Assembly: GCF_964355755.1 (NCBI RefSeq)
Contig: NC_092677.1
Location: 5,788,101 to 5,852,100 of the forward strand
Direction of reading: 5' to 3'
Length of the DNA: 64,000 nt
DNA from: Antedon mediterranea
Lineage: Eukaryota > Animalia > Echinodermata
Positions 3,252-62,067 of this stretch are shown here, one piece after another (position 1 is the first letter of the stretch; each line of letters opens with the position of its first letter). A model generated the notes under the pieces. The model made no database searches. It was not told the DNA's origin and worked only from the letters and a program-made list of their open reading frames with translations. The position numbers and the translations under genes are program-made.

Positions 3252-6200
3252 TTTTCATTTCATTTCATAATAACATTTATTTCCTTCATAATATACAAAA
3301 TAAATAATATAATACACAAAATTCATGACGAGAAGAAAGATAGTTAAAACAATACAATTTTTTTTTTTCTCATCTTTAACATGAATAAAACAATATTATG
3401 AAGGAGGCACAATTTCTAAAAAGCAAAAGCTTGTGTTGAAAGTGCCTGAACAAAACAAAAAGTAACTAAAATCAAATTAGTAAATAATAGTAAATGGTAT
3501 ATAGGAATAAAGTAATTACCATAACGGAATATGAAAACAATAAAAAACTGATTCCTAGAATATAACTAGTTAATTAATTTCCTTTTGTATTAGATATTGT
3601 TTAGTGTTAAAGACGAAGCTATGTTTGTTTGCAGAAGTTGTAATTTTGTTAGGAAGTGAGTTCCATATCTTGGGTCCAGTAAATCTAATATTATGTTGAA
3701 AAGAAGTCTTTTTATGTTTAGGAATATGAAGGTTATTGAGGATTCTTGTGGAATAGCCGTGAAATTCATAATTGGGAGAAAACATATCGCGTAAATGAGA
3801 TGGAAGAAGAGCATTTTGGCTTTTGTAAATAAATAAACATTGTTGGAAAATATTAATATCTGTTAATTTTAATAATTTGAGAGAACGAAATAAAGGATCT
3901 GTACTAGTTCTAGGTGAAACATTCGAAATTATTCGAATGATTTTCTTTTGTAGTATTTGAAGTTTATTTAAATTAGATGGGAATGTGTTACACCAAACGA
4001 TATTGCAATATAAAAGATATGGCAAAACAAGGGAGCAGTAGAGTGTTCGGAGAATATGATGTGGAAGAAAAGATGCCAGTCTACAAATTATACCAATATT
4101 TTTTGAGATTTTGTTTTCTGTCTCAATAACATGGGGTTTCCATGTCAGACGACTATCAATGGATACACCCAAAAATTTTGCATGATTGACCATGGGGAGA
4201 ACAGAACCATTTAGTTTAATTTGCAATGGACCTAATTTAATCGGCATCGTACTACTTCTAAACAAAACATAGCTGCACTTTTTTAGATTTACAGAAAGGC
4301 TGTTTGCCAGAAACCATTCGGATACATTAATTAAACTTGTATTTACAGTGTTAAATAACGACTCTAAGTGTCGATTTTTACAGATTAGTGTTGTGTCATC
4401 TGCATATAAAAAGTAAGATAAAGATACTGACGAATTGTAAATATCATTCACATATAAAAGAAACAGAAGAGGACCTAGTAATGAACCTTGTGGTACTCCA
4501 CAGGTAATAGGCAAATAGTCAGATTGGGAATCACAAAACTTGGTACATTGGTAGCGGTTAGATAAATAGCTCTTAAATAAATTGAGAGGAACACCGCGAA
4601 TACCATAGTGATACAGTTTTGAAAGAAGAATGGGATGGTTAATGGTATCGAATGCTTTCGATAGATCGACAAAAACACCAATTGCAAACTCATCATTTTC
4701 AAATGCATCTATTATTTCATTGGACAAATCAATTAAGGCCATTGCGGTATCAAAATGTTTGCGAAATCCAAATTGCTTATTGAATACAATATTATTTTTT
4801 TCCATAAAGGCATAGGTTCTATTATAGATAATTCTTTCTAATATTTTAGAAAATAGCGAAAGGACTGAGATCGGTCGGTAATTAGATAAAGTGTCCTTTT
4901 TTCCTGCTTTAAAGATGGGAGTAACTCTTGCCAATTTCAATTTATTTGGAAAAACTCCTTTTGTTAAAGACAGATTAAATATGTGACATAGAGGTTTAAC
5001 CAAAAGGGAAATTGATTGTTTAATAACTTTTGGACTGAATTCATCAAGTCCTTGCGCTTTATTAGTTTTAAAACACTTGACAATATCTATAATTTCTGTA
5101 TCAGACACTGGACACATAAATAAAGAGTTTAAAGTAGGTAAGGGCAAATACGTTTTAAAATCAGATTGATCGGTTGGCAATTTTTTTGAAAGAGTTGGTC
5201 CAATTTCGACAAAAAACTTATTGAATTCATTTGCGATTTGAGACGGGTCTTCAATGGATTCACCATTATTGCCTGTTAGAACAACTTTCGTATTCAAATT
5301 CGGAGACCTTTTAATCAAGGAGTTAATTACGCGCCAAGTACCTTTAATATCATGTTGACATTGAGTGAATCTGTTTTGATAGTATTCGGTTTTAACACGT
5401 TTAATAAGTAAATTTAAGGTATTACGGAATTTAGTGTATTTTATTTTATTATGATTGGTAGGATTATTTAGGTATTTAGCATATAACTTGTGTTTATATT
5501 TAGTAGATTGCAACAGACCATTTGACATCCAAGGTTTTAATTTTGTGTTTTTTTTACTTTGCGTAGTCATTGGAAAATGTTTATTATATAAAAGTTTTAA
5601 TTTAGTTTCAAAAGTATTATAAGCTTGATTAGGTTCTTGCAATAAGTTCACATCGTTCCATGTTATTACGCTAAGCTCTCGTTTAAATTGTTCGATGTTA
5701 TTTTCATTAATTTTCCTAAAAGGTTTATTTGGAGGTCTACTGACTGCTTGATTATTTTTGTATGTTAAGGTAGATATAGAAAAAACAGGTAGGTGATCGG
5801 AAATATCGCAATAGAGCTGACCACTAGCGAGGTGTAAATCAGGCTGGTTGGTTAATATGTTATCAATAAGAGTAGCACTATTTGATGTTATCCTAGTAGG
5901 TCTAAGTATTAGCGGTAAATAAAAGTTGCTAAAAAGAGTGTTTACAAAATTGTTAGTTGTGGTTTCATAAGTATATTGCAAAATATCTATATTGAAATCA
6001 CCCAACAGATATACCAGCTTATTTTCAGTTGAAAGAGTATGAAGTAGGTTATCTAGGATATCATTGAATGCATTGATATTCAAAGACGGAGCACGATAGA
6101 TTGTTCCCACGATGATATTTTTCCCATGTATCTGTTCTATTTCAATAAATATCGATTCACATATTGATTCATCTGTTGTTAAATCATTACGGACAGTAAC

Positions 6201-6898
6201 TGATACATTGTTTCGTACGTACAGGGCTACGCCACCACCCGCCTTAGATTTCCTATTTCTAGAAAAAATATTATAACCCGGCATATCTGTTAGGGGATTA
6301 TTTAAAACGTTTTAAAGAATCCATCTTGCCCAAGAGACTACGTGTATTAAAATGGATAGTAGACAAAATATTTTTATCATTGTTATGCTTAGAGAAATTC
6401 TCTGAGAATGTTTCTGGATCAAAATAATTAGATTCATTTAAACTAGCATAAACTTGAGAATGTGGATCAACATTTTCGTTAATATTCATGTTCTCGTATG
6501 CCACAAAGGGGTTAAATTTCACATCAGTTGTAGGGTTGGATTGGCACATTAATTATAGGTATCATAGATAATTTAAACATTAGGTAAAAGTTAACAATAA
6601 TATAATAAAATAAAAAACTAAATATAACAATAATTAAACATAAAACAATTCTGTTTAGTGCTGCCGTATTACTAATACATAGGTAGCGTAAGCGTTGCAC
6701 TCCCCGTGTATAAAACGGAGAATAATTCATTAGGTATGCAACCGGGTATGCAAAGGTATAATTTGCATAATGGTACGTAGCGGACATGCTTGGAATTTAA
6801 ACAAGCAAAGCCAGGTTAAGTATACTGACATTACAAAATGAAAGAAGGCAGAGAAAAAGAAAAAGAAACCATTCATATCCCAGTTCCTCAAAACACCG
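3252..6898 (-). mobile_element. 5'-truncated CR1/L2-group LINE
   Basis: Contains an APE+RT ORF. The 3' UTR ends in AATAAA and a short (TGAAA)n tail near 3252-3280 on the minus strand. Confidence 0.85.
3570..6284 (-). CDS. LINE ORF2: apurinic endonuclease plus reverse transcriptase, N-terminus disrupted
   Basis: 904 aa with GGGVALY, YRAP, GDFN, TLIDNI, SDHLPV (APE) and NYRPISVL, QFGFR, DLSKAFD, GVPQGSLLGP, YADD, FLGV (RT). The true N-terminus (HFNTRSL) is in the out-of-frame ORF 6298..6549, and the intervening ETW motif is missing. Confidence 0.92.
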   Translation of the reverse strand: MPGYNIFSRNRKSKAGGGVALYVRNNVSVTVRNDLTTDESICESIFIEIEQIHGKNIIVGTIYRAPSLNINAFNDILDNLLHTLSTENKLVYLLGDFNIDILQYTYETTTNNFVNTLFSNFYLPLILRPTRITSNSATLIDNILTNQPDLHLASGQLYCDISDHLPVFSISTLTYKNNQAVSRPPNKPFRKINENNIEQFKRELSVITWNDVNLLQEPNQAYNTFETKLKLLYNKHFPMTTQSKKNTKLKPWMSNGLLQSTKYKHKLYAKYLNNPTNHNKIKYTKFRNTLNLLIKRVKTEYYQNRFTQCQHDIKGTWRVINSLIKRSPNLNTKVVLTGNNGESIEDPSQIANEFNKFFVEIGPTLSKKLPTDQSDFKTYLPLPTLNSLFMCPVSDTEIIDIVKCFKTNKAQGLDEFSPKVIKQSISLLVKPLCHIFNLSLTKGVFPNKLKLARVTPIFKAGKKDTLSNYRPISVLSLFSKILERIIYNRTYAFMEKNNIVFNKQFGFRKHFDTAMALIDLSNEIIDAFENDEFAIGVFVDLSKAFDTINHPILLSKLYHYGIRGVPLNLFKSYLSNRYQCTKFCDSQSDYLPITCGVPQGSLLGPLLFLLYVNDIYNSSVSLSYFLYADDTTLICKNRHLESLFNTVNTSLINVSEWFLANSLSVNLKKCSYVLFRSSTMPIKLGPLQIKLNGSVLPMVNHAKFLGVSIDSRLTWKPHVIETENKISKNIGIICRLASFLPHHILRTLYCSLVLPYLLYCNIVWCNTFPSNLNKLQILQKKIIRIISNVSPRTSTDPLFRSLKLLKLTDINIFQQCLFIYKSQNALLPSHLRDMFSPNYEFHGYSTRILNNLHIPKHKKTSFQHNIRFTGPKIWNSLPNKITTSANKHSFVFNTKQYLIQKEIN

Positions 6899-6991
6899 TA
6901 AACGTGCTTGCCTTCCAATCCCAAGGTCCCGGGTTCAATCCTGACCTAGTACAGGGTTGTAACTCATGACTCTTTCAACTCCACTCCCTAA

Positions 6992-8066
6992 GGCCCTGTT
7001 CAGACCCATGGCGTTAGACCGTTTTAGCGTACAACGTTACTATCAAGGTCACGTTACAAACCGCAGAGAAAAAAACGAGGTGTTCAGACCCATAGCGTAC
7101 GATTATCGTTACAACGGAAGTACGTCATCCAGGTTGTTTCTAGTTGCATATTCATGTGCTCTTACCCACGTGTTTTCATCATTATTTCCACTGTATATAG
7201 GCCTAGATCTCAGCCCTACAATTATGACAAAATTTGCCGTAAATAAAACATACCTCAGCATTTATTTAAGAAAAATATAGTAAAGCCAATTAAATTTCTG
7301 TTTCTATTGTTTTTATTTTGTAGTAAAAAACATTTTCCCAGGCTCTTGTGTTACGAAAATAAAGCAGGCCTCGTAATGAAGAAAACAATGATTGTGATTA
7401 GTCTATCCAGTCCAGTCAAAGATATATATTCTTTGGTCCAGTCGGTTGAAAATAACCCTTAACTTGCTAATAAAAGGGACACAGCTCCCCCTTGTTTGTT
7501 TACTGATTTTTTTAGGAGTTAGGGGGTTTTCAGCATTAAACTTGTCCAGTCTAGTCTGCCTTGATGAATGAGTGACTTGATGTCCCACGCTAGTTTTTAG
7601 CTTGAATGAAATGCGTGAATGGCTCTAGGCCTAGCTAGGCCTAAAAGCGGATGGGATCGTAGTCCCTATGTTTAAATACAAGGTGCATGTATTTATGTCA
7701 TTTGTTAGAAAATATAATGGTAATCAGTTGATAATAGTTTGTAGCCTTTGTAACAGTTGTATTTGTAGTGTAGTTAGGCCTTATTTATTCTGGCCTTTTT
7801 GTTATTGAAATCCATCTCACACATTGACGATACAAGATGTCAGCCTAGGTCAAACCTTGTTTCGCGTCATAACAGGAAACGTTCTGATTGGATACAACGT
7901 TGACTTACAGTAGCGTCGTACGCTAAAACGCTACTATCAACCGTTTTCCACTACAACGCTACAACCGTTGTACGACGCGTTGTACGCTAATCCCCAACTG
8001 TTCAGACACACATTCTTTTAGCGTCGTACGCTAAAACGGTCTAACGCCATGGGTCTGAACAGGGCC
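6992..8066. mobile_element. Non-autonomous PIF/Harbinger-type element (MITE), 1075 bp
   Basis: About 41-bp perfect TIR GGCCCTGTTCAGACCCATGGCGTTAGACCGTTTTAGCGTAC at both ends, with TAA target-site duplication at 6989-6991 and 8067-8069. Confidence 0.9.
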
Positions 8067-10118: not shown

Positions 10119-13100
10119 ATGGTGTTATTTCAGGCAACACTCATTTTTGTTATACATTCTGTAGTCGGTAAGTTTAAAATAAATGATTATTGCAGTTTTA
10201 AATAAAATATTAATTGATAATGTATAGGCCTAATTAATAATATTTCTAACGTGTGAAGTGAAACAAAAGGAAGCATAGATACTGCAAAAAATGAGGTGCA
10301 GTATAATCACTTCATACATGTATATATAATTTGTTTTAAATATAATTTTCAAATCAAATAACTGAGATCTAATCTACAAGATTTAAAAGATGTTCTACAT
10401 AAACAAAAACTTAAACAAATCTTTAGGAGATAAGTTTTTTTGGCATGAGGAAAAATCCTTACATCTGAAACGATTTGTACCAAAGTAGCTACGTATCTTA
10501 TTCACTACTACCGCAAAACGAAATACATCATTATTGAACACCCATACTTAGCTATTGTTTAAATGATTTAATTATCGTAGTATAGGGCACTCATCCTCAA
10601 ACTTAACAGACGAATTGTGCATCACTGGTACTATCCCTTGATTTGAAAATTCTATTTGTATTTTGATTTTTTAGCTGATACATCTACCAAAACATTTTCG
10701 ATAATCGAAGGTGAAACTATCACAATGTCAGCACCAGAAGAGGTTCATCAGCTCAAGATCAACAACGAGATAATGAATATAAATTGGTTTGACGCTAAAT
10801 CACCCAATTCAAAGCATCTTATACTTAACCTGAGCGATTCCAAAGATGGCCGATTTTCAATCGATGATACTACTGCAACATATGGAAATTTAATCATAAA
10901 AAATGTAAAGAGAGAAGATGAGGGACACTACACATGTCAGGTGGTAAAAAATGATGGAATGACTGACTGGAGAGAGACATACCACATGCTTGTATACTGT
11001 GAGTCAATTTTCTCAGAAGGATTTTTTTTTTATTTTGAACATAGGTTAATTTTAATAGATTTAATATCTGTTTACTAGGTCGATAACGAACGACGATACT
11101 ATACATTTTCCAACAGAAAATAACTTTGGTGAAAATAATATATTATTTCAAGTCAAGAACAAAGGAAACCGACATACTTTGAATGCATCTTTAAATTATT
11201 TACATTCTCATTATAGAAAGGCTATGAACTATACCTACAACAAATAAACATAAATAACAAATAGTTGTGACCAATTTTGATTGAAAAGATATAAAAGAAA
11301 AAATATCTGCCTTTTGTTGAACGCGTATCCATATTTTGTGTGTGTTAACGTTGACTATTATTATATTGGTGTAACACACCTATATACCATATTTAATATA
11401 ATTAAACATAATTATACCGTATTGCTTTAAAGTTATATTAAAAACATTTGATTGAATATGCCATTAATGTCACATAATAGTTATTCACTTTCACCAAAAA
11501 TTTGATCAAAAGCCTGAATTTAACCAGTTATTTTGCTTATTTATTTTTTAAAGTGAAAACATGTCTTCATTATAATGTTTATGAAAACTGCAAAATAGCC
11601 TATCCAAAGTTTTTTAGTCGCGTGGACGCGACTCAATAGTTCACTATGTCGGTCGGTTGGTCTGTCGGTCTGTTGGTCTGTCTGTCGGTCCGGTATCACT
11701 ATGCGTTTTAGCACGCGACTTATGGCTGTTGGCCTTGTTTTTTTATCAATCTTCATTTGTTATGTTTTTGGAGACAATACATCTTTAATGATATAAAAAC
11801 AATCACATTTTCTTGATTTAGATATAGATCGTCCTACTATTTCTGGGCCATTTACATTGGTCTCTGACAACACTAATTCTGTTACCTTTTTCTGTACGTG
11901 GGGTAACATACATCCAAATGAGGAACCCAAAGTCTCGTGGTTGTTTGAAGAAAGTGTGCTTAACACAACAGGAGGAAGATACGCTTTAAAAGATGACAAA
12001 AACAGGCAATCAATTGTTGTAATGAATATTAGTTTAAGCGATTTTGGAAGGTATGCATGTCATATCAATGTTGAAACTAACATGGCTAATATGAGTAAGA
12101 CAAGCAATTATGAAGACCTCACACAGATGCCTAGTAAGTATATTAACCAACGATCTTACTAACACATTATAAAACAAGCCTATCTTTAGGAAACCCTGCT
12201 ATGTCCGTCTATAGGCCTACAAAAACGTACAAGGTGCACGTTCGTAACAATTGAGTAGGTTTACATTTCAAAGATTTTTTTGTATTTTGATGAAGTGTCC
12301 GTGCCCAACGAATTATATACAGCAAAATAGCATGAATTATTTATGTTTATTTTGTGACGTTTCATGAGGGGTCCCCAACTTATGTACGAAAAAAAAAATC
12401 GCTGCCCGGAACTCCCTACTGTACAAATACATCATCTATTTAAACCAACTCACAGGTGGAAAATATGCAAATATGTCATTGCGTACAAAAAGAGTAAATG
12501 ACGTCACAACATTATCATAAGGAAGTGGTATGTGTTTTGGAGTAAGTTGTGCTTCATCACCACCTTAGTAAAAACAGTATACAATGGAAAATACCGCTTT
12601 CAATTACCCACTTGGCTAAAGCCAGACCCTTATTTCCATTAAAGTAATTTATTAGTTATTTTTCTATAATTAATAGATTGCGAGCCACTGCTTATTACAG
12701 GATATCCCTTTACAAATGTAGAAGAAGGGGAAGAAGAAGTAAAGATACAGTGTGATGTAAAATTTCGTAAACATATTAAAGTAATAATTTGGAACGAATT
12801 AGACGACGCAGGTGATGATGTAAACATAGCAGTAGTGAACTCGATGAGGCGAGTTAACGGCCGCTACAAACTAACTGAAGAATCAGGAAAATCAAACTTA
12901 GTCATAAAGTCTCCGAATGGAAGGGATTCTGGAAAGATGTTCACGTGTATTGTTGTGTTTGTTGATGGAACTACGGCCGCCATGGAATCTCCCTCTAGGT
13001 TAAATGTATGGTGTAAGTATAAAAACGAAAATATATATTAAACAAGTGTTGCTAGTTGTACAAAGTACCAATTCTATTACGTCCGACCACCCTATCAAAT

Positions 13101-16100
13101 CCTATCCCTATACATTATACAAAATAATATATATTTAAAGTTGCAACTGCATTTTGATTGATTTTTTATCTAGTGACTTTATCTTGTACCTTTTTAGATA
13201 ACTTTTGTTTTCAGTCTAAAGAATCAAAGAATATTATTGTACATGTTCAAATTTATTTGTAAAAACTAACATTTCTAATAATAATCCAGGGACTTTCTAA
13301 ATGTTTTATTTTGGATGAAACCTGAAGGTACTTATCTGAAAACTATTGTATATATTATTGTAAACATAGCGATGAAGATTGTTATGTTTAACTACTTTCA
13401 TTGTTACATTTAAAACATTATGAAACTGTAGTATACTCATTTATTAGTGTACTTAAACAGAAATGAAACGCACAAGAATAAACAATAACAATAGACATAC
13501 TTCTTTTTCCTTTTATGGTTAAAGTTTTCTCCCTGCTTCTAACAAATTCAGATTGTTATATTTTAACAACTTTCATTTTTATTCTTAAAACAATAAGAAA
13601 CCGTAATAAATTATTACGAAACTCATTTATTAGTGAAGTTTATTAATATCAAGAAAACCGAAACCCCTTAATGACAAACATCATACGATAGAACTACTTC
13701 TTTTGTTTAGATAATTGTCTTCCTGTTTAATGCGTGGATTTATATTGTAACTATACATACATTACAACATGATCGGATGTAATGTAGAAAATATATATTA
13801 ATGGTTGTAAAGTGAAAACACTAACTCCGGAACCAATTCAATTCTAGGCCTTAAACCTTAGGTGCAATTGTTGAAATTTATGTATAATGCATATCAAGAG
13901 TGTGCAACGTTCCCAGCTATTAGACCTATGATGAAAAAAACCCTAGTTTATTTTCTTTTTTAAAATGTATATTTTTCAGATCTACATACGCCACAAATAA
14001 TGATATCTAAATCTAATGTCTATATTGGAGAACCAATCTCCATGATCTGCAACGTTAGTAGCAATTGGTACGCACAAGTACATATCACGTGGTTCAAAGA
14101 CAACGCCATCTTCACAAACGATAATAACAACTATTCGTATAGACTACAAATTCCAGCCGCATCTTTACTTGATAATGGAATTTACCAATGTCGAATCCGA
14201 AGTGACGACTTAGAAAAAATAAGTACTGGTATTTACGTATCAGTTACAGATGTTTGTGAGTATTATACCTCAATGATTGAAGACATTAGTTAGGTCACCT
14301 GACTTTGATACAGAAAGACCCGGATTTAATTTCCGAGGGATGACAAAGTGGCATGAAAAAGAACTTAGTACAGTGAGCTCATAAATAATAGCCCATCCCA
14401 TACGTTCGGAATGGCACGAGACTCTCCTTTACCTTTTGTAATTGAAGGTAATAAGACAAATAATTATTAAAAAGATATTATTGATTGATTTATCAATATC
14501 AATATATTATTGATTTATTAATTCGTCATAAAACATTTACATAAGATAATGGAAAAAAGAAGGTCCAAAAAACATTTAAAAACATGAGAAAAGAAAACAA
14601 TTATATAAAAGTAATATTACTTGGCCAAAAAGAATGATTAATAAATAAAAATTTAAAAATTTGCTTTATTAAAAAATTATTAAAATTATGGATACTACTT
14701 TACAGACTTTCCAACTTGAAACAATTTACCATTGGAAGGTTTTTTTTATGTATGTACAACTATGAGGGCGCAATCAAATTTTTAAAATTACATTAAGCCA
14801 TAAAAGTCCGCGCTTCACAAATAGGAAAATATTTACATCTTTAATATTAAGTAGTCAGGCGTGTCTAAGGGGAAAATGCGTACCAACTCAACATTAATTC
14901 ATTTATTAAATTAAAATTTATTACATTTCTTACGTTTCAGTTATCGATGCTAAACTGTTATACGAATCTGACACTGGTGTTGTAACATGCATTGCGGATG
15001 GACATCCCCCGCCCTCGCTAGTCAGAATATATTATAATGGAGAAAAAGTTGCAGAAGGTGACTCCTCGACCATTTACACAATGGACACATCGGTTTGTGG
15101 AGAAGCTATTATGTGTTATACAAAGAATGCTAGAATGAACAACACTACACAACTACAAACAGATGAGCACTGTAAAGGTATGGATAGTTATCACAAACAT
15201 GATTACGTAACACCAAAGACTAAAATTTATAATAGAAAATCGTATCTATGGGCTCATACCCCATTTACCTAACCAAAATGTGTTTACAGGAGAAAGAGCA
15301 CATGACAAGCCGAATGTCAAGTATGGCAACAAAAATCGCTGCCCATTCGGATAAGTTCAGATTAGCTGTGGTTTTAATTGGTCATGACGACGATGACAAT
15401 AAAATACAAATTATATGTGAGAGTTCTTTTATTTAGCTGTAGGCGCGGGCCCAAATAAAATTAGAATATACTTCTATAGACTTTCTAAAGTACATCAATC
15501 ACTAGATTACTAATTTATAGGATGAAATCACTGGCGTTGGTGTTTTTTTCTTTACGGTAGCGATATTTAAGACGACTGGTTTATCAGTCTAGTCTATCAA
15601 CCATGCGCAGTAACCTGGTGTATTAATGTATGCTTACACGACGCTCTATCGACAGGGGGCGCAATAACAGTACTAGCAAAAATCATTCCTACTTCATTTT
15701 GCAGTATATAAGTTTCGCATGACTCGCCAACATATTAACCTTGCGCAGTTTAAAATGAAAGTAATGTTGAGGGCGATGTTACCGACACGATTTTCTGTTA
15801 AAATGATTTTCTAATGTAAACCAATTGTTTGATATTGTTATTTTGGAGTTTAAATTTTTATTTTTTCAGAGGATTTTTATTCACCTTCAACATTATCAAG
15901 CACAGTTCTAATTATAATAGCTGCAATGTCTGCTTTCATCTTTGGCGCCGTTCCGACATGTGTTATTACTCGTTTTATTTATGTAAGTTTTTTTAAACTT
16001 CCAAAGATTTTTAGTCAGTAAATAAAAAAAACAAACAAACAAAAACAAGATAAAAAAGAACAACCTAAGAAATTGAAACTATTATATTAAAATAAAATGT

Positions 16101-16745
16101 ACACAATTTGTTCATCTATCAACTAAAAGTACCGTAGGCCTATATCTATATATTACGTTAATATACATTACTAATAAACAAAGTTAGTAACAATTAATAA
16201 TTAACAGAATGTATTTCAGTTTGTTGAATTTAGGACATTATGATTTTATATTGAATTATATATATATTTTAAATTAATAAATACGGTAAACTAGTAATGT
16301 GATCCTAACAATGATGGTATACGTTTTTCAGAATTTAACGCCTAGGCCTACTTATTAAAATTATTCTTTTGAATTGATGAGCCTACCCAAACTATAGGTT
16401 AACATCAACGAACAACTTGTAATACTAGTATTGTTTCTTTAGTAAATTGTCTGTGATCTGATTGAAGACAGGTCTACACAACAGTATCTTAGATGTAAAA
16501 CACCAACAAATAAATTGAAATCATTATTTTTTATTTAGATAAAACGAATAAGAACAATTCATTGTGAGTATCGAAATCCTCGCTACCAAGAACTAAAAGT
16601 GTCTGCGCTTCCTGCCATTTACAAAGAGCTCAACAAAGTTACTAAAGTAGATAACGGTGCTAGGCCCACGACGACGACAAGAAAGGAACAAGTCAACACG
16701 GATTCGAATGTGGCCAAAAGCATTTATGAAAATATTTCAGAATAA
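10119..16745 (+). CDS. Gene 1: apparently intact IgSF type-I receptor with 5 Ig-like domains, TM, and ITAM plus ITIM tail
   Basis: Exons: SP 10119-10167 (MVLFQATLIFVIHSVV), V 10675-10998, C 11822-12133, V-like 12677-13012, C2 13980-14255, short Ig 14941-15177, TM 15870-15982, tail 16539-16745 (...YQELKVSALPAIYKEL...SIYENISE*). All are GT-AG, phase-compatible and stop-free. A probable non-coding exon donor lies near 9249. Confidence 0.85.
11613..11740 (-). repeat. Helentron/DINE-1-like short interspersed repeat (other copies ~31470-31568, 39335-39425, 40478-40548, 45090-45205, 56338-56445, 60516-61285)
   Basis: Shared layout: ACAAGGCCA..AGTCGCGTG, (GACC/GACA)n microsatellite, ATAGTGA.CTATAGAGTCGCG...CGCGACTAA terminal hairpin. 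The family assignment is inferred from this layout. Confidence 0.65.
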
Positions 16746-19084
16746 GAAAAAACACTAATCTTGTAACTAAGAGATTCTATTTTTATTTCCTGATGAAAGC
16801 AAAAAATGATGACACGTATACCAGCATACGTGTCCCTAGTTTTACAAAATCAAAATCTTTAATTATTGCACCTACTTGTGTTGAAATATTTTGTTAACAA
16901 ATGTATTTAAATTAATAATGCAATCGATATGAGTGGATGGAGGCCACATTGACTTCAGTGAACATTATGTCGGAAAACAACTCCAATAATATTAACAAAA
17001 TCAACTGCCCTTAAGATGTAACCTATAATTTATTACAAAATATTTCTTATTATAACTATAACTATTATTATTATAACTATAATAATAACTACAATAGTAA
17101 TGACAATAATAACTATTGTAATAACAACAATTTTAAATGTAAATATGCATATGTTTGTTTGATGTTGTATGTTTAAGCGGATATTAGCCCTTGATGGCAT
17201 TTGCAGCAATAAAGAAATTGAATTGAACAAGTAAATACAATTGAAAAAAAAAAATTCAAATTAAATTCCCCCTATGTGCTAGGCCTACTGGGTGAGTTAT
17301 ATGGATTTGTTTCCCCTTCCTGCAAACTTGTCTATTTTTGTAATATGTATTGTTTTTTGCATATTTGGCAATAAAAAATAATAATTTAAATTTGATTAGA
17401 CCCGGCTGTATACATAATTTAATGTATGATAAATCAAACGTTCGTTTATTAAATACAGTTAATCAACAACCTATAATTAGATTCCTACTATTCAAAAGGA
17501 GGTAGCTTCACAACACAATGGAGAAAACGCTTTTTGTATAGAATTTTAACTGTGTGTTGATAATAGTTAATTTTCCATTTAAATAAGAACTTGTAAATAG
17601 AAAAAAAAATACATATTTTTTTACGATTTACCTTTCAATAATCTTAAGCAATTTTAATATTCAGTCGTCGTCAGTAGTCTTGACGTAATTTAAAATGTTC
17701 CACTTGCTATATATAGTATGTGTATCTTGATAATAATTCTTATATGTATATATTGTTTTTTTATCTATATATTTATATACTCTTTTATCATCTTCTGAGA
17801 CGGAGTGACCGGCCTGAGGGTCAAAGTTTTATTTTAAACTGTGGTCATTCAATGCCATCTTGGACTATGTATTTTTGTATTTTTATGGCTAATAAAGAAA
17901 TGAAAAATAAAAAAGTGCGCTCAATCTCTATTGTAATATAACTAACTTGAATTATTGTGTCATGTGTTAAATAAAATAACATTAGTAATCTGTGCATTTT
18001 ATTTATATATTTTAAAGAAAAAAGTAATTAACCGAATAGTTGACAAACAACTCGGTCATACGGATTCGGATGGTGACGAACGTACTCGTGTGAAAAGGGG
18101 CTTAGTGGCATAACGACGTACACATGCGGTAAAGTGCAAATGACTCATTGAAAAAAAAACCATCAGAAAATAAACAATCATACATAATAATAAAAGAGGT
18201 AGCAACTAAATATGCCAGGTCGCAAAATACTGGGCGGCAAATGTAAGTGGCAATGTTTGTTGAGAAGAGGTAACGGAGTAGACCCGTGATAAGTAAATAC
18301 ATCACATTTGAATGTAAATGTCACGGAGCTATGATATTATGCGATTAACAGATAATGGTCAATAAAAAATAATACGCAGACTATATTTTTAGCGTACCTT
18401 GGATGGAAGCAACATTTTAAAAAAACAGTGATTTTCATTGGATGTCCAAATAATGACCTAAACGTGGTCAGTGTTGTAATGAACAGTTTTGCAATTTTAA
18501 TATTCAAAACCAGAAGTGTAGCTTCGGTATATATATATTTTTATGACGGATGATGAAACTGAAATATAAACTGATAAACAGCAGAATAATCTGTATTTAT
18601 TAAAAAAAGCTAAGGTTGTGAAGAAAGGGATTCAACGAGTAAATCGTAAGTGTGTATTTGCAATCAGGATTTTTTTTTATAAATGATAAAATTATATATT
18701 TATGTACTACTGTTTTCATGGTAAAGACTAAACTTAGAATAACTTATTTAAAAGCAATATTTATTAATAAAAGATTTATATAATATAATATGTACATCTT
18801 ATATACATTTATATTGTACCATACTTATATTATTTGATTTAATATTATTGTAATGAAAGTTATTAGTTATAAGAATTCTTTTATTGTCACGAATATTTGG
18901 TCTTTGATCAATGAATCATTCCTATCATATTCCTCTCTCTTTCCAAAAAAATATATTGAACAAATAAATCTAAATGAAATATGAGAGTTAAACAAGTATT
19001 CTCAGTAGTTGGTCATAGCATTGGAAATGACAGTATTTAAAATGCTAACACAATGAAGGAAATTTTTTCTTTTCTACTACATAG

Positions 19085-24300: not shown

Positions 24301-25059
24301 GGTGGCCCGGGCCGGGAGGCTGGGTAGGCAGCTCCACACCCCACCCCTTGAACCCCTCCTGGATAAGTGACGCGATGAATTATTGTAACACAATACATTT
24401 ACTTTAAAGCACAATGCAGATTATTACAATAAGATCTAAAGAGGCAACATATAACATCAGTAGAACATTTCATATTGGGATTGAGCGAGTTGCTTCTAAA
24501 AAACACGTTTCCTCATCACTGCGATCACACGTGAGAATATGAGTACCAAGACTTCTCAAATAATTCATCGATTGCAAACTCTTTACAACAAACTGACGTA
24601 CTAGTTGCTGGAGTATAGAAACTGTTAGAGTTATAAAAGCAAATCAAGATCCTTAGCGATAAATTAATATGATATAATATGCCAACTGTTTGTACTAAGA
24701 AACTTGATTTGGCCGATTTTTGTTGTGAACTTTACAATATTTAGTTAAAAGTAATAAGGTTGCAATGCAAATTGTTATTGAAATTACAACCTAAAAATAC
24801 GATTTGATTAGTTAACAATCCAATGTTAAAATCAGTTGTTATCGCTTCAATCGATCTTAGACTAAGTTGCTAATTATGATTGTGAAACAATGGTATTAAA
24901 TAAAATCGACAGCAATAAGAAACTTACTTTCACTCAAATGATACATTATTGTTTTTACAGAAAAGACGATTAGGTCTGAAAGAAAACAAGTCTAAAGATA
25001 ATGACCTCCAATATCAAGACATGCAATATGCGTCACCCCTTCTCATTACCAGGAGCTAA
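21388..25059 (+). CDS. Gene 3: SP-V-C-(chimeric stalk)-TM-tail receptor with a GC donor after TM and a frameshifted tail
   Basis: SP 21388-21439, V 22244-22531, C 23216-23512, chimeric exon 23621-23737, TM 23867-23982 (donor GCAAGT), tail 24961-25059 KRRLGLKENKSKDNDLQYQDMQYASPLLITRS*. Confidence 0.72.
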
Positions 25060-25977
25060 AACCCAGTAAGTAAATACACGACAAGAAGGCGGAAAAATGT
25101 CAAAACGTATGCAATGACAAGAAGACAAGATGAAGATGTACCTGAACAAGTTTTAGATTAAGTTCTCATTTACCTATAGATCTTTAATAGTAGGGGCTGA
25201 TATGAAAAGAGTTGTGAAAACAAAAACGATTCTATATACTAAAAAGATATATGAACGTTCCTCCTAAAATTAATAATTGTAATTTATATGAACCCCGCTA
25301 CTAGCCTACCTACATTTTTAAAGTTGATATAGTGATTTTAATTATAAAAGATGCATTAATTATTTTATGTAAATAAGGTACAATAAAAATAATAATTTAA
25401 ACAGCGCAAACTAAAACTAGGCCTAATATATGTTAACAATTGTTTCCACTAGTCAAATTTTCGAATCGAAAGCGTCATCTTATACGCATGGGTGTATTGC
25501 AAAGCGAAAATTGGTGCTAAACCAATCACGAGTTCAGGAAATTAGTTATGACGCTTCAGTGAGCACTTATGCGTATCTTAAATCTCAGTAGCAGACACGC
25601 AATGGAAATGAAAATCGGCAAAAAAAAAAGAAAAAAATAAATATTATAAAACTATTTATAGGCTATAAATACAAAAGCGAGTTTATAGTATCTTCTTCTT
25701 TTTTTTATGTATAGACAGTTTAGATTTAATGGGGCTAAGAGAACTTGTGAATTTCATTCTGATATTATACTAAGATACTAATAATATTTGACTGTTGTAA
25801 TGAGGACTTGCTTTAGTATAAGTGACTTCTGTGATATTCCTTTAACGTTTTGCTTTAAAGATATATTTAAATAAAAATTAAAAAGATGAATAAAATAAAA
25901 TTTTGAACACGAAATTTTGCAGTTCACATGTTCACCTTGCAACTTTCTGGTGTCAACTAAGTTGGCCGTTAGTGGCT

Positions 25978-28274: not shown

Positions 28275-30239
28275 ATGTCAACATTTGTGTTTCTGTCTCT
28301 ACTGTTTCTTATTGAAAACACAATCGGTAAGTTTTTTTCAGGTGTACAACGGAAAGACCATTGTTCTATAACTATTTGTTGTGTTTACTTTAATAAAAAA
28401 AAAATTCAGTAAATAAAGATTTGGTTACTTCAGTGTACATATCTATATATCAGGGAAGGAAGAGGGGAGAGGGAAGGGAGAGGGGGAGAGGGGGAGAAGG
28501 AAGGGAGTGGGGCGGGAAGAGTGGGGAGAGGGGAGGAGAAGAATGAGAAAAAGGGGAAGAGAAGAATGAGAAAAGGAGGAGTAGGAGAGCGTTCGTGCGG
28601 GTGGCAACTGAATAAAACAAGGAAATTGTTATGCAGCACAATACATTCTTCAAACTAGGCATAATAATAATTGTGTTCGTCTTATTGAATGTACATAATA
28701 GGAATGCGGCTCTTATATATCGATGACCATAGAAATACCGAAAACTGTTCTATGATATATTGTTAATCATCCAGGTTCTAGATAAATATTCATAACACAA
28801 TTATATTCATAACGTGAACTTATTTACAAATATTAACTTATTCTTAATCATAATTCGTTCAAACCAGAACTTGATATCTATAGCCATTAATTGTTTCCAA
28901 TTTAGCATTCTATATTGCTAATTCTATTTATATTTTAGCCTCAGATGTTATACTATCTGTAGTAGAAGGTAATTCAATCACAATTCCTGGAGGTGGTATT
29001 CGCATTGACAAGATACATGCAGTAAGTTGGTTCAAAGGTGAAAAAGCATATCAATATCAACAAGGTATCGTTCATTCTAACAATCGTCAATCTGGCAGAT
29101 TTTCGATCGTTAATTCCTATGGAGATTTGATGATACAGAATGTAAGTAGAGATGATGCAGGGTACTACACTGTTCAAGTTATTGAAAGTGGCGAGGAACT
29201 TAGCGAGACCAACACATATCACCTGGATGTATATTGTAAGAATAAAAAAATGTTTAATAATATTAGATCTTTAATTTAGATATTCTAAAATTAGATAAGT
29301 ACGGTATATGTTTTTTCAACATTTACAATACCAATCATATTTCAATAAATGAAAACATTCACTTAAGGATTGAAACAAATTAATATTACATTGATAATTC
29401 TTATTATTTCTTCCTATTCTTATAAGAACATTCGTGTTCTGTTTTTAAAATACTTACATTTTGTGTAACACTATGTTTTGTAATAACTTACATACATTCA
29501 TGTCAACATGTAAAACATTTATATATTAGATCTTAGTTAGCAGAGATATATATTTACCGATTCTCTGACAGTTAATGCATGCAATGTGATCACAAAAGAC
29601 ATATAGAGAGAGGAATAGCGCAGTCCGCTAATTGAGGCAACATTTAACATCAGTAGAATATTTCATATTGAGATTGAGCGAGTTGCTTCTAAAAACTATC
29701 ACACATGAGAATACGAGTACCACGACCTCTCAAATAAATTCATTCTCGATTGCAAACTCGTTACAAACAAATACCGTACTAGTTGCTGGAGTATAGGAAC
29801 TATGAGACTTATAAAAGCAAACATTTAATATGATATAATATGCCAACTGTTTGTACTAAGAAATTTGATTTGGCCGATTTTTGTTGTGAACTTTACAATA
29901 TTTAGTTAAATGTAATAAGATTGCAATGCAAATTGTTATTGGAATTACAACCTAAAAATACGATTTGATTAGTTTAACAATCCAATGTCAAAATCAGTTG
30001 TTATCGCTTCAATCGATCTTAGACTAAATTGCTAATTATGATTGTGAAACAATGGTATTAAATAAAATCGACAGCAATAAGAAACTTACTTTCACTCAAA
30101 TAATACATTATTGTTTTTGCAGAAAAGACGAGTAGGTCTGAAAGAAAACAAGTCTAAAGATAATGAACTTCAATATCAAGACATGCAATATGCGTCACCT
30201 CCTTCTCATTACCAGGAACTAAAACCCAGTAAGAAATAG
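28275..30239 (+). CDS. Gene 4: SP-V-tail unit lacking C and TM exons; predicted secreted single-V protein (or pseudogene)
   Basis: SP 28275-28326, V 28939-29235, tail exon 30123-30239 (KRRVGLKENKSKDNELQYQDMQYASPPSHYQELKPSKK*). A deletion junction at ~29632 fuses the V-C intron to the post-TM intron. The V-to-tail splice creates T|AA, a stop codon. Confidence 0.7.
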
Positions 30240-33071
30240 ATCACACGAAGGCGGAAAAATGTCAATACGTATGCAATTTCAAGATGACAAGATGACAATT
30301 TTCCTGAACACGTTTTATATTAAGTTCTCATTTACTTATAGATTTAATAGTAGGGGTATGAAAAGGTATGTAAAAACAAAAACGATTCTATACTAAAACT
30401 TAAATTAATAATTGTAATTTATAATGAACCACGCCTTCTACTAAACTACCTACATTTTTAAAGTTGATATAGTGCCATTAACAAAAATAATGATAAAACA
30501 TGCATTAATTATTTCTGTAAATAATGTACAATAAAAATAATAATTCAAACAGCGCAAACTAGAAGTAGGCCTAATGTGCGTTATGTTTTTTCCACTAGTC
30601 AAATTTGCGAATCGAAAGCGTCAGCTTACACGCATGCGTGTATTGTAAAGCGAAACAAATATGCTAAACCAATCAGAGCTCAGGAAATTAGTTATGACGC
30701 TTCACTTATGCAAATCTTAAATCTCAGCAGCAGACACGCGATATAAATGAAAATCGCAGCTATCGGTCTTGTAGCGCGATTGTTTTCTCTGTAAAACATT
30801 TGGGAACTAAATTCCCTGAGTGTAAAACGGGCTTTTGGTAAACGTGTAAAGGTAATGTAAGGTAGAGGATAATTCTACAAAGTAGTAAAAACAATATAAG
30901 TTATAACTAAAGTGAGAAGACAAACTAAATGAAAAGATATGTTCTTTGATAGAAGAAGCCTACATATTTGAATAGTTCAAATACAATAATCAATATAATA
31001 GTTAAGGTTATCATATTACTAGTTATAACTCTATTATGTTTTAAGCATTTTGATTTTTTTATATTCTTTAGTTAACATTTTTCATTATAACGTCTTAAGT
31101 GTAGTCTTTTTGCAAAGGCAAGATATTCTATGAATTCAATCTTGGATTTCAACATGGCGGTTGGAATATAATATTTAAAACTTTGATAGCAATGTATATG
31201 GAATTCTATAATATAATAAACATGGGTATAGAAAACAATTCTAAACTGCAATTCAAATTACCAAAAACACATTTAACTTAATTATTTGCTTTTATTTGCT
31301 TTTAACATAAAATGCCTACAGCATCTGACGGATGGTGGTGCTAATGCTTTAGTGATTTATTGTAATAATTCCTATAAAATAAATGTCCTCAAAACATAAA
31401 CAATAAAGATGAATAAATCAATCTTCATCATTTTGTAGTTACAGTAAAGTTATTCACTTCCAGAAGAAACAAGGCCATTTAGATGGCTGCAGTCGCGTGC
31501 TCAAGTTAGTGTTTACCGACCAACCGACCGACATACTGAGCTGTAGAGTCGCGTTGTACGCGACTAAAAAGAAAGCAACAAAACCATCATATCATAAACG
31601 ACAAAATACAGTTAATAACAAAAAACCTTTTTTGATTATCCAATACATAACATGTCTGTTGGACTTAACTTGAGGATTTATTCTCGAGCATTTGCTGGTC
31701 AACAAAATTAAATAGTAATAGATGAGAACGTGTACCGTGACATCTCGCTGTTGCTGTAGCAAAAGCTTGAATGTAATCAGCAAAAATATATTATATAAAA
31801 CGTAAAATTACTTGTAATAGTTCAACGTGATTGTGTTGTGTTTCCTACATTATTGAAAGTGCAATACAAACTGACTGCACGATCACAACGAGTATTCTAC
31901 ATATCATCGTCGCCTTGACCGCACTATCACAACGAGTATTCTACATATCGTCGTCGCCTTGGCATTATTCCGTGGAATGAGTCGGTAAGTGTTTATTTTT
32001 TAGTTTACTCCTACTTTTTATTTATCAACATATTCACATTGTTAGAATGGGATTTTCACGTAAACGAAGAGGTTTGTACACTTTTATCTGGTAATGTGGC
32101 ATATTCACTTCCACAAGAAGTGAATGATGGAGTAAGAGCAGTTTTCTGTTTGGGCTCATGCCTATTACTTGCTCCTGGCAAGATGAATTGTAAAATGTAC
32201 TTTATGAACTTTTGCCGAATAAATATTATTATTATTATTATTATATATTGTTTAATTGATCTAGACCGAAAATAATAATGATAAAGTACGTCAATAAGAT
32301 ATCAATCTACTATATACAAACAATGTGCCTTTCTCATAGGCCGACTTTTTTTTTCACACGTGCACAACTTTATTTAAAAATTGCTTTTCCACAACATGCA
32401 TAAATAAAAGATCTATTTCTGATTTAAAAATCTGGTTTTTGTTTTTTATTTTGTAGTGGCACTACTACACTTATTGTGAAAAAAAGATTATATCTAGAGT
32501 CTTTTGACTATTTATAATTATGTATATTTGGGTAAATAATGTGAGGTTGAATAACGTTTCACAGTCGAAAAATAATATATACAGTAGGCTGTTTCCAATG
32601 AGAAAGAATACAATTACAATTGCAAACTCTTTCCATTTTCTAGTTGGACCCAATTGTGATTGTTAATGTAATTCAACAAACAAAACAAAACAATTTTAAA
32701 TCGTTAAGAGATATGTTAAAACTGACATCCTTTTAAAACAAATGCAAACAACAAATACGTTGCTGGTGCACATATGCCCAACAATACAATGCCACACCAG
32801 TGATAACATTATTACTAGTAATGAAATCTCTCCATTTCATAAATACTAGTCATTCATGATGGTTTTTTGAAATATATTGGAGCATCAGTATTGTATTTTT
32901 AAATAATCTTATAGAAGAAAATAACAGTTATGTATACATTACTTTGGTACATGCTTGAATAATAATTTGATTTGAAATCAATTTCCTCTATTTCGAAAAT
33001 TTGGAGTAAACTGTCATCGTTATTAAATCTAAAAACTGTATAAAGATAATACTTTCTTTCTCCTATAGATT

Positions 33072-36000: not shown

Positions 36001-36716
36001 TTGTCTCTATCCTTACTTGTGTAATAGCACGTGTTATGTATGTAAGTATTTCAAATTATACAGGAAATAAAAACACGGAGATGAATTAAATTCAACAAAT
36101 GTACTGCATAGTAGAACTTTGACTTTGAATGATAATGTTAATGATGACGATGACTATGACACAATGATGACGATGACGGTGACTATGACACGATGGTGAT
36201 GATGATGATTACGATGATAATAATGGTGCATAATGACCATCACGTGCAACTGGAACTTACATTTTTGTCTCATTTAGTATTACGTTTGCTTGGCCTAAGC
36301 ATTACGTTTTAGATTGATTGGTATTATATTGCTCGTATCATTTTGTGACTTGAAAGAAAATACATTAGTCATTCAGTCGGTTCTGTTTATGATTTGAGAG
36401 TTATATAATAACTTAATGACACTGAATAAAAACAACAGAAAGTCTAAACTTTTACTTTCAATCAATATTAAAACACAGGAATTATTTAAAAAAATTTATA
36501 TTCTTTTGATAGGAAAGACGAGTAAAGCAAATTAATTCTAAACGTAAAAGTCCTCAATACCAAGACCTGCAATTTATGCCACGCCCTGACCAGTACCAAG
36601 AGCTTACTATAGATTCTAGAATACACGACGGTGTCACCAACAAAAATAAAACAGATAGAAAAATCTCGGAAACGAGTTCGAAGGTTAACGTTGTTTATGA
36701 AGACATACCTAATTAA
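33072..36716 (+). CDS. Gene 5: apparently intact IgSF receptor, V-C-V-C, TM, ITAM plus ITIM tail
   Basis: SP 33072-33129 (MARIVCIFLSLLILFESAI), V 33558-33857, C 34136-34450, V 34878-35189, C 35495-35809, TM 35920-36041, tail 36513-36716 (...YQDLQFMPRPDQYQEL...VVYEDIPN*). All are phase-compatible. A probable non-coding exon donor lies near 31985. Confidence 0.87.
36130..36225. repeat. Degenerate (GAT/GAC)n microsatellite in the gene 5 TM-tail intron
   Basis: GATGACGATGACTATGAC...GATGATGATGAT read directly. Confidence 0.8.
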
Positions 36717-38367: not shown

Positions 38368-39050
38368 ATGGCAACATATATGTTTTTGCTCTTTCTCATC
38401 CAACAGACGACAGGTAAGATATCATTGTAATAAAGTGAAGAAAATTGATGGGGTGGGGTTGTGAATTGTGTCAGTTTCGCCCCTCGGCCGAAAAAAGTGT
38501 TATTTGTCTAGTATAAAGATATGATACAAGGAATGAAAGTACCTGGAAGGATCTACTACCGTATTCGATATCGACACCGGTGGACCTTTTTGCAGAGTAA
38601 ATTGAAGTGGTGAACTACGATATATCAGTGAATTTTTGACAATATTATGTGTACAGGTATTTAAATATTAATTTCCCACATTGCTTCTGTTACCTACAGA
38701 AAAGAAGAGCATCAGTAGAAATTCATTCTAAACAAGATCTACAATACCAAGATGTGCAACTTTCTTCATTCCCCTCCGTGTACATCGATTCTAACATAGA
38801 CAACGGTGTTATCTATGCAAATACAGAGGCCGGCAATATGTCGGATAGGTGGCCGAAGGAAGACGGAGCCGGCAAAATGCTGGATGCGTGGCCCAAGGAT
38901 GACGTAAGCAGGAACATGGCGGATGAATTGCCAAAGGGCGGCGTTACGGTGAAATTTTCGGATGCGTGGCCAAAGAGCGGCGTTACGGTGAACATGTCGG
39001 ATGCGAGGCCGAATAAGGATGAACTCAATTATGAAGTTGTGAATTATTAG
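38368..39050 (+). pseudogene. Gene 6 relic: SP exon plus an intact tyrosine-motif tail exon, with all Ig and TM exons missing
   Basis: SP 38368-38413 (MATYMFLLFLIQQTT, gtaag). Tail 38700-39050 reads KRRASVEIHSKQDLQYQDVQLSSFPSVYIDS...VIYAN...LNYEVVNY*. Only 286 bp separate them and the phases are incompatible. Confidence 0.72.
38832..39026 (+). repeat. Coding 39-bp (13-aa) tandem repeat, 5 copies
   Basis: GNMSDRWPKEDGA / GKMLDAWPKDDVS / RNMADELPKGGVT / VKFSDAWPKSGVT / VNMSDARPNKDEL. Confidence 0.88.
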
Positions 39051-44300: not shown

Positions 44301-44980
44301 TGTGCAATTACATTTTTTTAATATAAGAAAAAGTTTAAAGTAATTTCTTGCTCCTATACTTTACATGCATTAACGGAGACAAGTTTGACACAAATTGATC
44401 TGCATATCACGTGACTTAAATCCAATGTCGTAACTCTTTATATATATGGCTCTGAATACTACTGTACCTGATAGAGAGTGTGCTATATTTTAAAACCGAA
44501 TAGTTCAGTTCAACTAATAATGCTGTACGTAATTTGTGAATACTGTTTCAATTATTACAAAAACAATTACGAATTGAATTTTTTTAATGATACATTAATT
44601 GTTAAATGGTTTGTTGGTGGCGATACTGAGGCGGTTACTTATATCACCCAGTAGGGCCTACTGCCAGAGGCAACTGATCATTTTCTAAATAATCCCTAAA
44701 TCAGTGAAAAGGCAGATATATGTTGTATGTCACCCAATAACGTTTTATTATTGTGTCTATAGGGAAAAGAGATAGCAGAAATTTATATCAAACATCAGAA
44801 TTTACTTCAAGCATTACAGGAGGCCCGGACAACGGAGATAATTTACCGGTACCTCCATCATACCTAGACGTTACCGAACATGTCAATATTCCGGATGTAT
44901 GTGATGGCACTACTATGGCAACTATTGAAACAGAAACTATTTCAGTAAATTGTTTAGTGTATGATGAAATTCCAAACTGA
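41311..44980 (+). CDS. Gene 7: apparently intact IgSF receptor, V-C, distinct TM, ITIM-type tail without ITAM
   Basis: SP 41311-41356 (MATYLFLLFLIQQTI), V 41779-42084, C 42745-43071, TM 43187-43321 (LWFIVFVCATVFIVCVIGVLLSI, phase 1), tail 44763-44980 (...NLYQT...PPSYLDV...LVYDEIPN*). Confidence 0.85.
43640..44454. mobile_element. Non-autonomous hAT-like element in a gene 7 intron
   Basis: Imperfect TIR CAGAGCC....ATATAAAGAGTTACGACATTG, with an 8-bp TSD AATACTAC at 43632-43639 and 44455-44462. Confidence 0.85.
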
Positions 44981-53877: not shown

Positions 53878-53881
53878 GCCG

Positions 53882-61285: not shown

Positions 61286-62067
61286 TAATGGTGTACTTAT
61301 CAACGGTAAAATGATACACTTTTACTTTCACTCTATAATGAATCATTTATATTTTTCTTACAGAAAAGACGAGTAAAAGAAATCCATACTAATCATAAAA
61401 GTCACCAATATCAAGACCTGCAATTTGTTTCCAGTCCCGCTATTTACAATACAACGATATATCCTATAACAGACGACAACGTTGCTACCAATCAATACGC
61501 TGACAAAATGTCGTATACGCCGTGTCCTAAGCCTAACGTTGATTATCAGAATGTGACGAACTAGTCTAACTTGCTTATTACTTTTTATTAGAGAATCGGG
61601 GGTGGGGGAGGGGTGTTTTTTATATAATGTATAATTGTATATATAACTAGAAAATCAAATTCTTTAAATTAATACAGGCTATAATATACACACATTTAAC
61701 AAAAGCTTTTTTTCCTTAAGAAATATCGTTTAAGCATAATACATGCTCAAGGAATAATTGATTGTTTGTTTGAAATAATATAATTATGAAACATGTAATC
61801 AAGAAAACAAATATATAAATTTGATTAACTTTAGCCTTGCTCCAGTTGATACTGTAAAGCTTCATTATCAAACTTTATGTGACAGAAAATGTGATGTGCA
61901 TGCATGGATATTATAATGTCTTATCACTACGATATTTGGGCATGTCACTACCATATTTGGGCTCATCGCATACTTTTTTGACAAACTAGTTTGATAGTGT
62001 AGACAGGGCATAAAACAAACTAACGTGTATTAGAATGTTCGTCAAAACACATGCGTTTTGTATGGTG

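Follow-up and report, generated by a model that had tools for sequence, protein, structure and literature searches.

A four-tyrosine cytoplasmic tail with an ITAM core, and an uncertain ITIM, in a tandem immunoglobulin receptor family of the crinoid Antedon mediterranea

A cytoplasmic tail that carries both an ITAM and an ITIM would combine activation and inhibition in one chain, and the question raised by this locus is whether a predicted tail in Antedon mediterranea does so. The window, which is the whole stretch of 64,000 nucleotides of contig NC_092677.1 that was analysed, contains an exon at 16539..16745 that the first-pass annotation, made from the letters alone, read as the end of a receptor gene with a canonical ITAM and a C-terminal ITIM, and hence as a dual or switchable receptor. 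The gene, referred to here as gene 1, features the following exons.

10119..10167, plus strand: predicted signal-peptide exon with a phase-1 donor, from sequence only and absent from the RefSeq model
10675..10998, plus strand: Ig domain 1, V-type without the B-F cysteine pair (Pfam V-set 1.4e-10; one Cys)
11822..12133, plus strand: Ig domain 2, I/C2-like, with a Cys pair (Pfam I-set 1.2e-7; X1 contig continuous from 12133 to 12677)
12677..13012, plus strand: Ig domain 3, with a Cys pair, matching Anneissia P0166 and P0167 (51/106 identical to P0166; joint 13012->13980 with GT..AG)
13980..14255, plus strand: Ig domain 4 (Pfam Ig_2 2.9e-11; RefSeq model)
14941..15177, plus strand: Ig-like domain 5, short (weak Pfam Ig_3, E 0.008; RefSeq model)
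15870..15982, plus strand: transmembrane (TM) exon with a phase-0 donor (hydropathy 2.35; spliced to the tail by an X1 joint)
16539..16745, plus strand: cytoplasmic tail exon, 68 aa with four tyrosines (translation, X1 joint, RefSeq model)

The tail exon is confirmed: it is spliced, and it closes a receptor gene that encodes five Ig domains and a single membrane pass. The proposed junction from 15982 to 16539 is present in one contig of run X1 as a joint with GT..AG ends and 68 letters on 15915-15982, the same junction is found in the RefSeq protein XP_071958398.1, and both place the tail after the TM exon in the frame that had been proposed. X1 is taken as an RNA-type run by guess, from a sample that differs from that of the DNA runs, and it is the GT..AG joints that serve as evidence; on gene 1 these are 12133->12677, 13012->13980 and 15982->16539, and no joint is seen at the signal-V, V-D2, D4-D5 and D5-TM boundaries, where the gaps in coverage weigh neither for nor against. 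The DNA run X2 is unspliced across 12482-17032. The TM exon ends in phase 0 at GTAAGT, and the acceptor at 16539 is preceded by a pyrimidine-rich TAG and opens the longest frame among the AG acceptors listed from 15990 to 16600. The alternative acceptors of the last intron were rejected for their short frames, or in the case of 16569, which keeps the frame, for a poor pyrimidine tract. XP_071958398.1 is gene 1 itself, a model of 506 aa named 'neural cell adhesion molecule 2-like' that begins inside the V exon at 10959; its residues 401-438 map to 15869-15982 and its residues 439-506 to 16539-16742, which means that a public gene model already includes the exon. The remark that it was missing from the ORF track holds at a cut-off of 80 aa but not at 60 aa, where it is listed. 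The X1 tail differs from the window at 9 letters, 6 of which are listed (4 synonymous and 2 non-synonymous, with no motif residue changed), and has a 12-nt gap that is in frame. On domain 3, 18 of 317 letters differ, and 7 of the 12 listed changes are non-synonymous. The X1 sequence may come from another allele or a very close paralog.

The five Ig exons and the TM exon have GT-AG ends and consistent phases, and with the predicted signal exon they form an open protein of 618 aa. Over the V exon, at 10664-10845, an X1 contig has a 3-nt gap, and its 51 upstream letters lie off the predicted signal exon. Cys pairs are found in domains 2, 3 and 4, and the Trp is retained in domain 1; all eight V exons that were checked have 0 or 1 Cys. 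The model of domain 1 (pLDDT 81) is a V fold with tied Z scores of 11.8 to CD48 and 11.6 to CEACAM1, and in the fold search the scores to CD48, CEACAMs, B7 and NKp44 are tied, all lying less than 1 Z apart. A V-domain homodimer prediction scored 0.00, a value that weighs neither for nor against. The Pfam search gave no match for domain 3 (12677..13012); an acceptor for this domain at 12701 was dropped, the X1 contig using 12677. Domains 3 and 4 align to Anneissia P0166 and P0167 with local scores of 154-260, compared with 60 or less for the three Antedon paralog models tested. The hydrophobic core of the TM segment carries no charged residue, and signalling would therefore depend on gene 1's own tail.

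The motifs of this tail lie exactly where they had been reported, with YQEL at 16584-16595, YKEL at 16620-16631, a spacer of 8 aa and SIYENI at 16719-16736, in a translation of 68 aa and a stop. A fourth conserved tyrosine site, of the YxN (Grb2) type, had been overlooked.

16569..16577, plus strand: YxN (YRN), Grb2-type and membrane-proximal, 5 residues ahead of the ITAM (kept as YQN, with an unchanged offset, in 4 rows from Anneissia)
16584..16631, plus strand: ITAM core YQEL-x8-YKEL, without an acidic residue at -3 (sequence; 6/11 tail rows)
16719..16736, plus strand: SIYENI, C-terminal, a broad-ITIM match that is also Src-SH2/Grb2-type (sequence; family tail comparison)

Whether these motifs deserve the names given to them depends on the definition. 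The pattern tested for the ITAM was YxxL/I-x(6-8)-YxxL/I; as given in PMC5112662, the ITAM definition includes D/E three residues ahead of the first tyrosine, and the narrow ITIM has L/V at +3. The broad ITIM pattern, [I/L/V/S]xYxx[I/V/L], is that of Huene et al. The gene 1 tail has the YxxL-x8-YxxL core on the cytoplasmic side of the TM segment but not the acidic residue, so only the core of the 'canonical ITAM' stands. SIYENI fits the broad ITIM pattern but, with Ile at +3, fails the narrow [I/L/V/S]xYxx[L/V]. From sequence, the ITAM core is convincing and the ITIM label is uncertain.

The window as a whole is a tandem array in which nine V exons and six TM exons are accompanied by seven copies of the tail, of which two are damaged. 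The tail copies other than that of gene 1 are listed below.

24961..25180, plus strand: damaged tail copy with the frame broken between both tyrosines
30123..30340, plus strand: damaged or short tail copy, YQDM-x8-YQEL followed by an early stop
36513..36716, plus strand: paralog tail exon with YQDL-x8-YQEL and VVYEDI; its link to the TM exon 35920-36041 is predicted by phase only, and it is absent from RefSeq P0002
38700..39050, plus strand: paralog tail exon without an ITAM, with a distal LNYEVV (sequence comparison)
44765..44980, plus strand: paralog tail exon without an ITAM, with a distal LVYDEI (RefSeq XP_071958322.1, which is P0011)
61364..61564, plus strand: paralog tail exon that retains Y16 and Y28, lacks the second Leu and has a distal VDYQNV; its link to the TM exon 60146-60261 is predicted

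RefSeq P0005 ends in a last exon other than 61364..61564. In XP_071959377.1 and XP_071959378.1 the TM exons are present, but the phase-matching tail exons behind them, which carry the motifs, are left out (35920-36716 and 60146-61564), and motif scans based on annotation would miss them. No intact ectodomain or TM exon was found directly upstream of 38700..39050. At 38368-39050 and at 28272-30340, signal or V exons are followed directly by tail exons whose phase does not fit, the search between them having found no TM exon, and these arrangements are likely to be remnants of unequal crossing-over. The segment 24441-25617 is repeated at 29634-30756 (85%). On the opposite strand, an exon at 907-1176 resembles the third Ig domain of gene 1 (32% identical, E 1e-6), which suggests a further family member facing away from the array.

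Mobile elements are also present in the window. A GC-rich element of ~5.4 kb at 50537-55899 has long minus-strand ORFs, a Pfam match to a tyrosine-recombinase N-terminal domain and inverted ends of 177 nt that are 98% alike, and it interrupts a paralog V exon (halves at 50496-50536 and 55900-56157); we take it to be probably a DIRS-type retrotransposon. Upstream of gene 1 lie an open LINE-type ORF of 913 aa with endonuclease and reverse transcriptase (3570-6311, minus strand) and a fragment of another retroelement-like ORF (2-487, plus strand). The ends of 6990-8065 look by eye like long inverted repeats, and this segment resembles a non-autonomous DNA element.

A profile built from the nine V exons was run against 1.84 billion proteins and gave 1242 matches, of which the best 150 were examined; five top matches among these are A. 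mediterranea RefSeq proteins that agree letter for letter with exons of the window. Single-domain scores among the stored proteins are 74-150 bits in 10 crinoid proteins and at most 28.5 in all others. A search with P0038 (4 matches from 2140 candidates) and one with a tail profile (4 from 3082) returned proteins of Anneissia japonica and Antedon only. A word search with the V exon against longer proteins gave no match, and the RefSeq model itself has little of this exon. The tandem Ig family thus appears, by sequence similarity, to be restricted to crinoids, and this restriction is provisional because the protein searches are word-limited. In the tree of V domains, gene 1 and four Anneissia domains group weakly (76/86), and strict orthology between gene 1 and Anneissia is for that reason not claimed.

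The tails were compared in 11 rows from 10 genes, with the two damaged copies excluded and P0165 entered as two rows. In the model of this Anneissia protein (XP_033105322.1) two complete tails stand one behind the other, the first having LIYEDV and the next PIYEDV, either as a real duplication or as an artefact of the model; because it is 91% identical to P0038, the three ITAM-bearing Anneissia records are not independent. The ITAM core is present in 6 of 11 rows with a spacer of x8 every time, YxxL-x8-YxxL being found again in one paralog and three A. japonica proteins. The 12-residue distance between the tyrosines is exact in 8 of 11. At ITAM position -3 there is no D/E in any of the six ITAM rows, all of which have N or S; the spacer contains a proline, and with the acidic residue absent upstream, Syk binding is not assured. 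The YxN lies five residues ahead of the ITAM in 5 of 11 rows (that of gene 1 and four from Anneissia). No feature of the tail is more constant than a tyrosine that lies six residues before the C-terminus and has I/V at +3; it occurs in 9 of 10 last tails (0.5-1.5% in a per-tail shuffle). Around it, position -2 is I/L/V/S in seven of nine tails and Pro in two, both from Anneissia, position +1 is E/D/Q in 9/9, and position +2 is Asn in 3/9. The broad ITIM is matched distally in 8/11 rows, and the distal tyrosine follows the second tyrosine of the ITAM, or the residue aligned with it, at 33-36 residues in 9/11 rows and at 31 in the X1 transcript. Y16, L19, Y28 and Y63 are invariant across 6 aligned tails that are 22-29% identical to gene 1. 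Four paralogs without an ITAM retain the distal motif, and Anneissia P0167 shares the ectodomain but has none of the tail motifs. As read from the sequences, the tyrosine motifs of the tail are conserved between two crinoid species. The claim that an ITAM and an ITIM share one chain is borne out as a co-occurrence of patterns, in 4/11 rows (gene 1, 36513, P0166 and the first copy of P0165); as a statement about function it is weakened by the +1 residue and by the two prolines at -2.

The reading we favour, with about even confidence, is that the gene 1 tail is an activating phosphotyrosine scaffold. Ligand-driven clustering would lead to phosphorylation of the tail by a Src-family kinase, Y16 and Y28 of the ITAM would recruit a tandem-SH2 kinase of the Syk or HTK16/Shark type, HTK16 being a Shark-type kinase, and Y11 of the YxN would recruit Grb2, by extension from the pathways of vertebrates and flies. 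At the C-terminus, Y-E-N/D-I/V would more probably dock a Src-family SH2 domain or an adaptor (Grb2, Nck or BLNK/SLP-76 type) than an SHP phosphatase, and the distal tyrosine may be comparable to the non-ITAM tyrosine of CD79a. Paralogs that keep the distal tyrosine and have lost parts of the ITAM would retune the output. The SH2 preferences used are mammalian. Among ligands of the Src SH2 domain pYEEI is the best, and Grb2 requires Asn at +2 (PMC7337045), YDDV binds SLP-76 and Nck (PMC2908683), and BLNK is recruited by the downstream non-ITAM tyrosine of CD79a (PMC10779339). The high-affinity ligands of the SHP2 C-SH2 domain tabulated in PMC12878756 have A/V/T/S at +1 in 9/9, in contrast to E/D/Q at the distal motif, which may therefore be a Src-family or adaptor site; this mismatch, together with the Src, SLP-76/Nck and BLNK precedents, favours the scaffold over a true dual receptor. 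Grb2 as the sole partner of the distal motif was rejected, since Asn is at +2 in only 3/9. Most ITAM-type Xenopus Ceacams also carry YxN motifs (legend in PMC5112662), and Syk, HTK16, Src-family kinases, Grb2 and a BLNK-like protein are reported in sea-star eggs (PMC11593052). Besides the ITAM features that leave Syk binding unassured, two features count against the scaffold, namely I/L/V/S at -2 in 7/9 tails and the retention of the distal motif in paralogs without an ITAM, both of which are expected of the inhibitory members of a paired family.

These same two features argue for the strongest rival, a true dual or switchable receptor in which the ITAM would recruit Syk/Shark and the distal tyrosine, alone or with Y28, would recruit SHP2 or SHIP and damp the signal, as in FCRL3. 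This reading is unlikely, though it survives better than any other alternative. The broad ITIM in 8/11 rows, the joint occurrence with the ITAM in 4/11 and the VIYEDV of Anneissia P0166, which fits the narrow ITIM pattern, are consistent with it, as is the fixed spacing from Y28 to the distal tyrosine (33-36 in 9/11 rows, 31 in X1), given that SHP2 activators are described as two sites joined by a flexible linker of set length (PMC10231330). FCRL3 itself is reported to recruit Syk/Zap70 as well as SHP-1/2 (PMC4950983). The acidic or Gln residue at +1, however, departs from the SHP2 ligands in 9/9, SIYENI misses the L/V +3 definition taken from PMC5112662, and in two Anneissia tails position -2 is Pro although their ITAM is intact.

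C-terminal YxxL/V motifs can serve as sorting signals, and the YxxL/I/V motifs might mainly direct endocytosis or basolateral/lysosomal sorting of an adhesion or scavenging receptor rather than dock SH2 domains, which is improbable. The distal tyrosine is fixed six residues from the end (9/10), reminiscent of C-terminal sorting signals, the automatic names of the family proteins point to adhesion molecules, and YxxL/M/V/I/F is also an endocytic motif according to the legend in PMC5112662. Sorting leaves unexplained the 12-residue spacing of the tyrosines (8/11), the conserved YxN and the acidic residues at +1/+2. A more elaborate and similarly improbable proposal is that Y28 is shared, pairing either with Y16 (12 residues; Syk/Shark) or with the C-terminal tyrosine (31-36; SHP2), so that the two effectors would be mutually exclusive; paralogs that have lost the Leu after Y28 would be inhibitory-only, and the array would be a paired-receptor locus that arose in echinoderms independently of Alr, Fester and the vertebrate families and serves to recognise microbes or to tell self from non-self. 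Both motifs on separate tyrosines arise in 0.065% of 200,000 composition shuffles (a post hoc test) and both patterns are also met in 9 of 338 six-frame stop-to-stop segments of at least 50 aa in this AT-rich window (two of them real tails, several reusing one tyrosine), so the case rests on splicing and conservation and not on the pattern. A chance pattern or non-coding open frame, to which those nine segments lend some colour, is extremely improbable, being refuted by the spliced junction and the conservation in a second species, with the RefSeq model, the in-frame indel and the mostly synonymous differences also against it.

An immune or recognition role for the gene 1 family may be inferred from its tandem, fast-changing and lineage-restricted array and from the X1 differences. 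ITAM/ITIM-type families have been described in a cnidarian (Alr), a tunicate (FcoR), oyster and vertebrates, the oyster having one ITAM receptor (PMC11999971), and a transcribed and conserved crinoid example would fill the echinoderm gap. It would also support an old tyrosine signalling logic with receptors rebuilt in each lineage, and invertebrate 'ITIMs' called by pattern may be activating docking sites. The public models mislabel the family genes as adhesion molecules, and two tails are missing from them. At 68 aa the gene 1 tail is compact and testable, and its natural paralogs differ in their motif sets. Among the papers listed for echinoderms and crinoids on ITAM/ITIM Ig receptors, with subscription journals mostly outside coverage, no such receptor was found, and the available portions of PMC9505182 and PMC11810900 hold nothing on echinoderm ITAM receptors.

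What is new here is apparently the undescribed tandem Ig receptor family and the reading of its motifs; an ITAM and an ITIM in one chain are already known from FCRL2/3/5 and, in hemITAM-like form, from FcoR4B, which weakens the view of the gene 1 tail as exceptional (PMC4950983 and PMC12582321). By analogy, gene 1 is like FCRL2/3/5 or CD79a in the design of its tail and like CEACAM, Alr and FcoR in its genomic habit. The human FCRL2/3/5 are likewise type I multi-Ig receptors with ITAM-like and ITIM-like motifs in one tail, in a tandem family with varying motifs, as far as PMC4950983 describes them. They differ as lymphocyte receptors with tested SH2 partners and are compared here as a functional analogue only; gene 1 has an acidic +1 in the distal motif and a YxN ahead of the ITAM.

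CEACAMs share an N-terminal V domain that has no B-F disulfide and precedes C2/I domains, a tandem and fast-changing array, and a YxN beside ITAM-type motifs (PMC5112662 and PMC4079198). In the PDB, the V profile matches CEACAM1/5/6 best by sequence, with 27.5 bits per domain, although CD48 ties with CEACAM1 in the fold search. The CEACAM ITAM, however, has a YxxL split by a phase-0 intron and extends over several tail exons (legend in PMC5112662), whereas the gene 1 tail is one exon of 207 nt. Additionally, CEACAMs put the ITAM and ITIM on separate paired genes, and none were found in amphioxus or ascidian according to PMC4079198.

Hydractinia Alr is a tandem invertebrate IgSF with V domains that lack the cysteine pin and divergent tails with ITAMs or ITIMs by the same patterns (bioRxiv 10.1101/2022.03.04.482883). 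As described there, its I-set domains are without the cysteine pair, and an Fn3-like fold comes after them; in gene 1, domains 2-4 have the pair and domain 1 has the Trp, and domain 5, the last before the TM segment, gives a weak Ig_3 match. Gene 1 thus falls outside the CEACAMs on the split ITAM intron and outside Alr on the I-set cysteine pair.

Botryllus FcoR is a polymorphic invertebrate IgSF in which a single chain, FcoR4B, combines an ITIM with a hemITAM-like motif, and FcoR paired C-terminal motifs are 29-33 residues apart, which resembles the 31-36 of the gene 1 family (PMC12582321). FcoR differs in having hemITAMs rather than a two-tyrosine ITAM, motif swaps by multi-exon splicing and a Fester-family partner gene, none of which is seen at gene 1. 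CD79a (Ig-alpha) also has an ITAM flanked by extra tyrosines, the downstream one recruiting an activating adaptor (PMC10779339), but it has a single Ig domain and acts as a signalling subunit of the B-cell receptor, with the extra tyrosine ~11 residues past the ITAM compared with 35 in gene 1.
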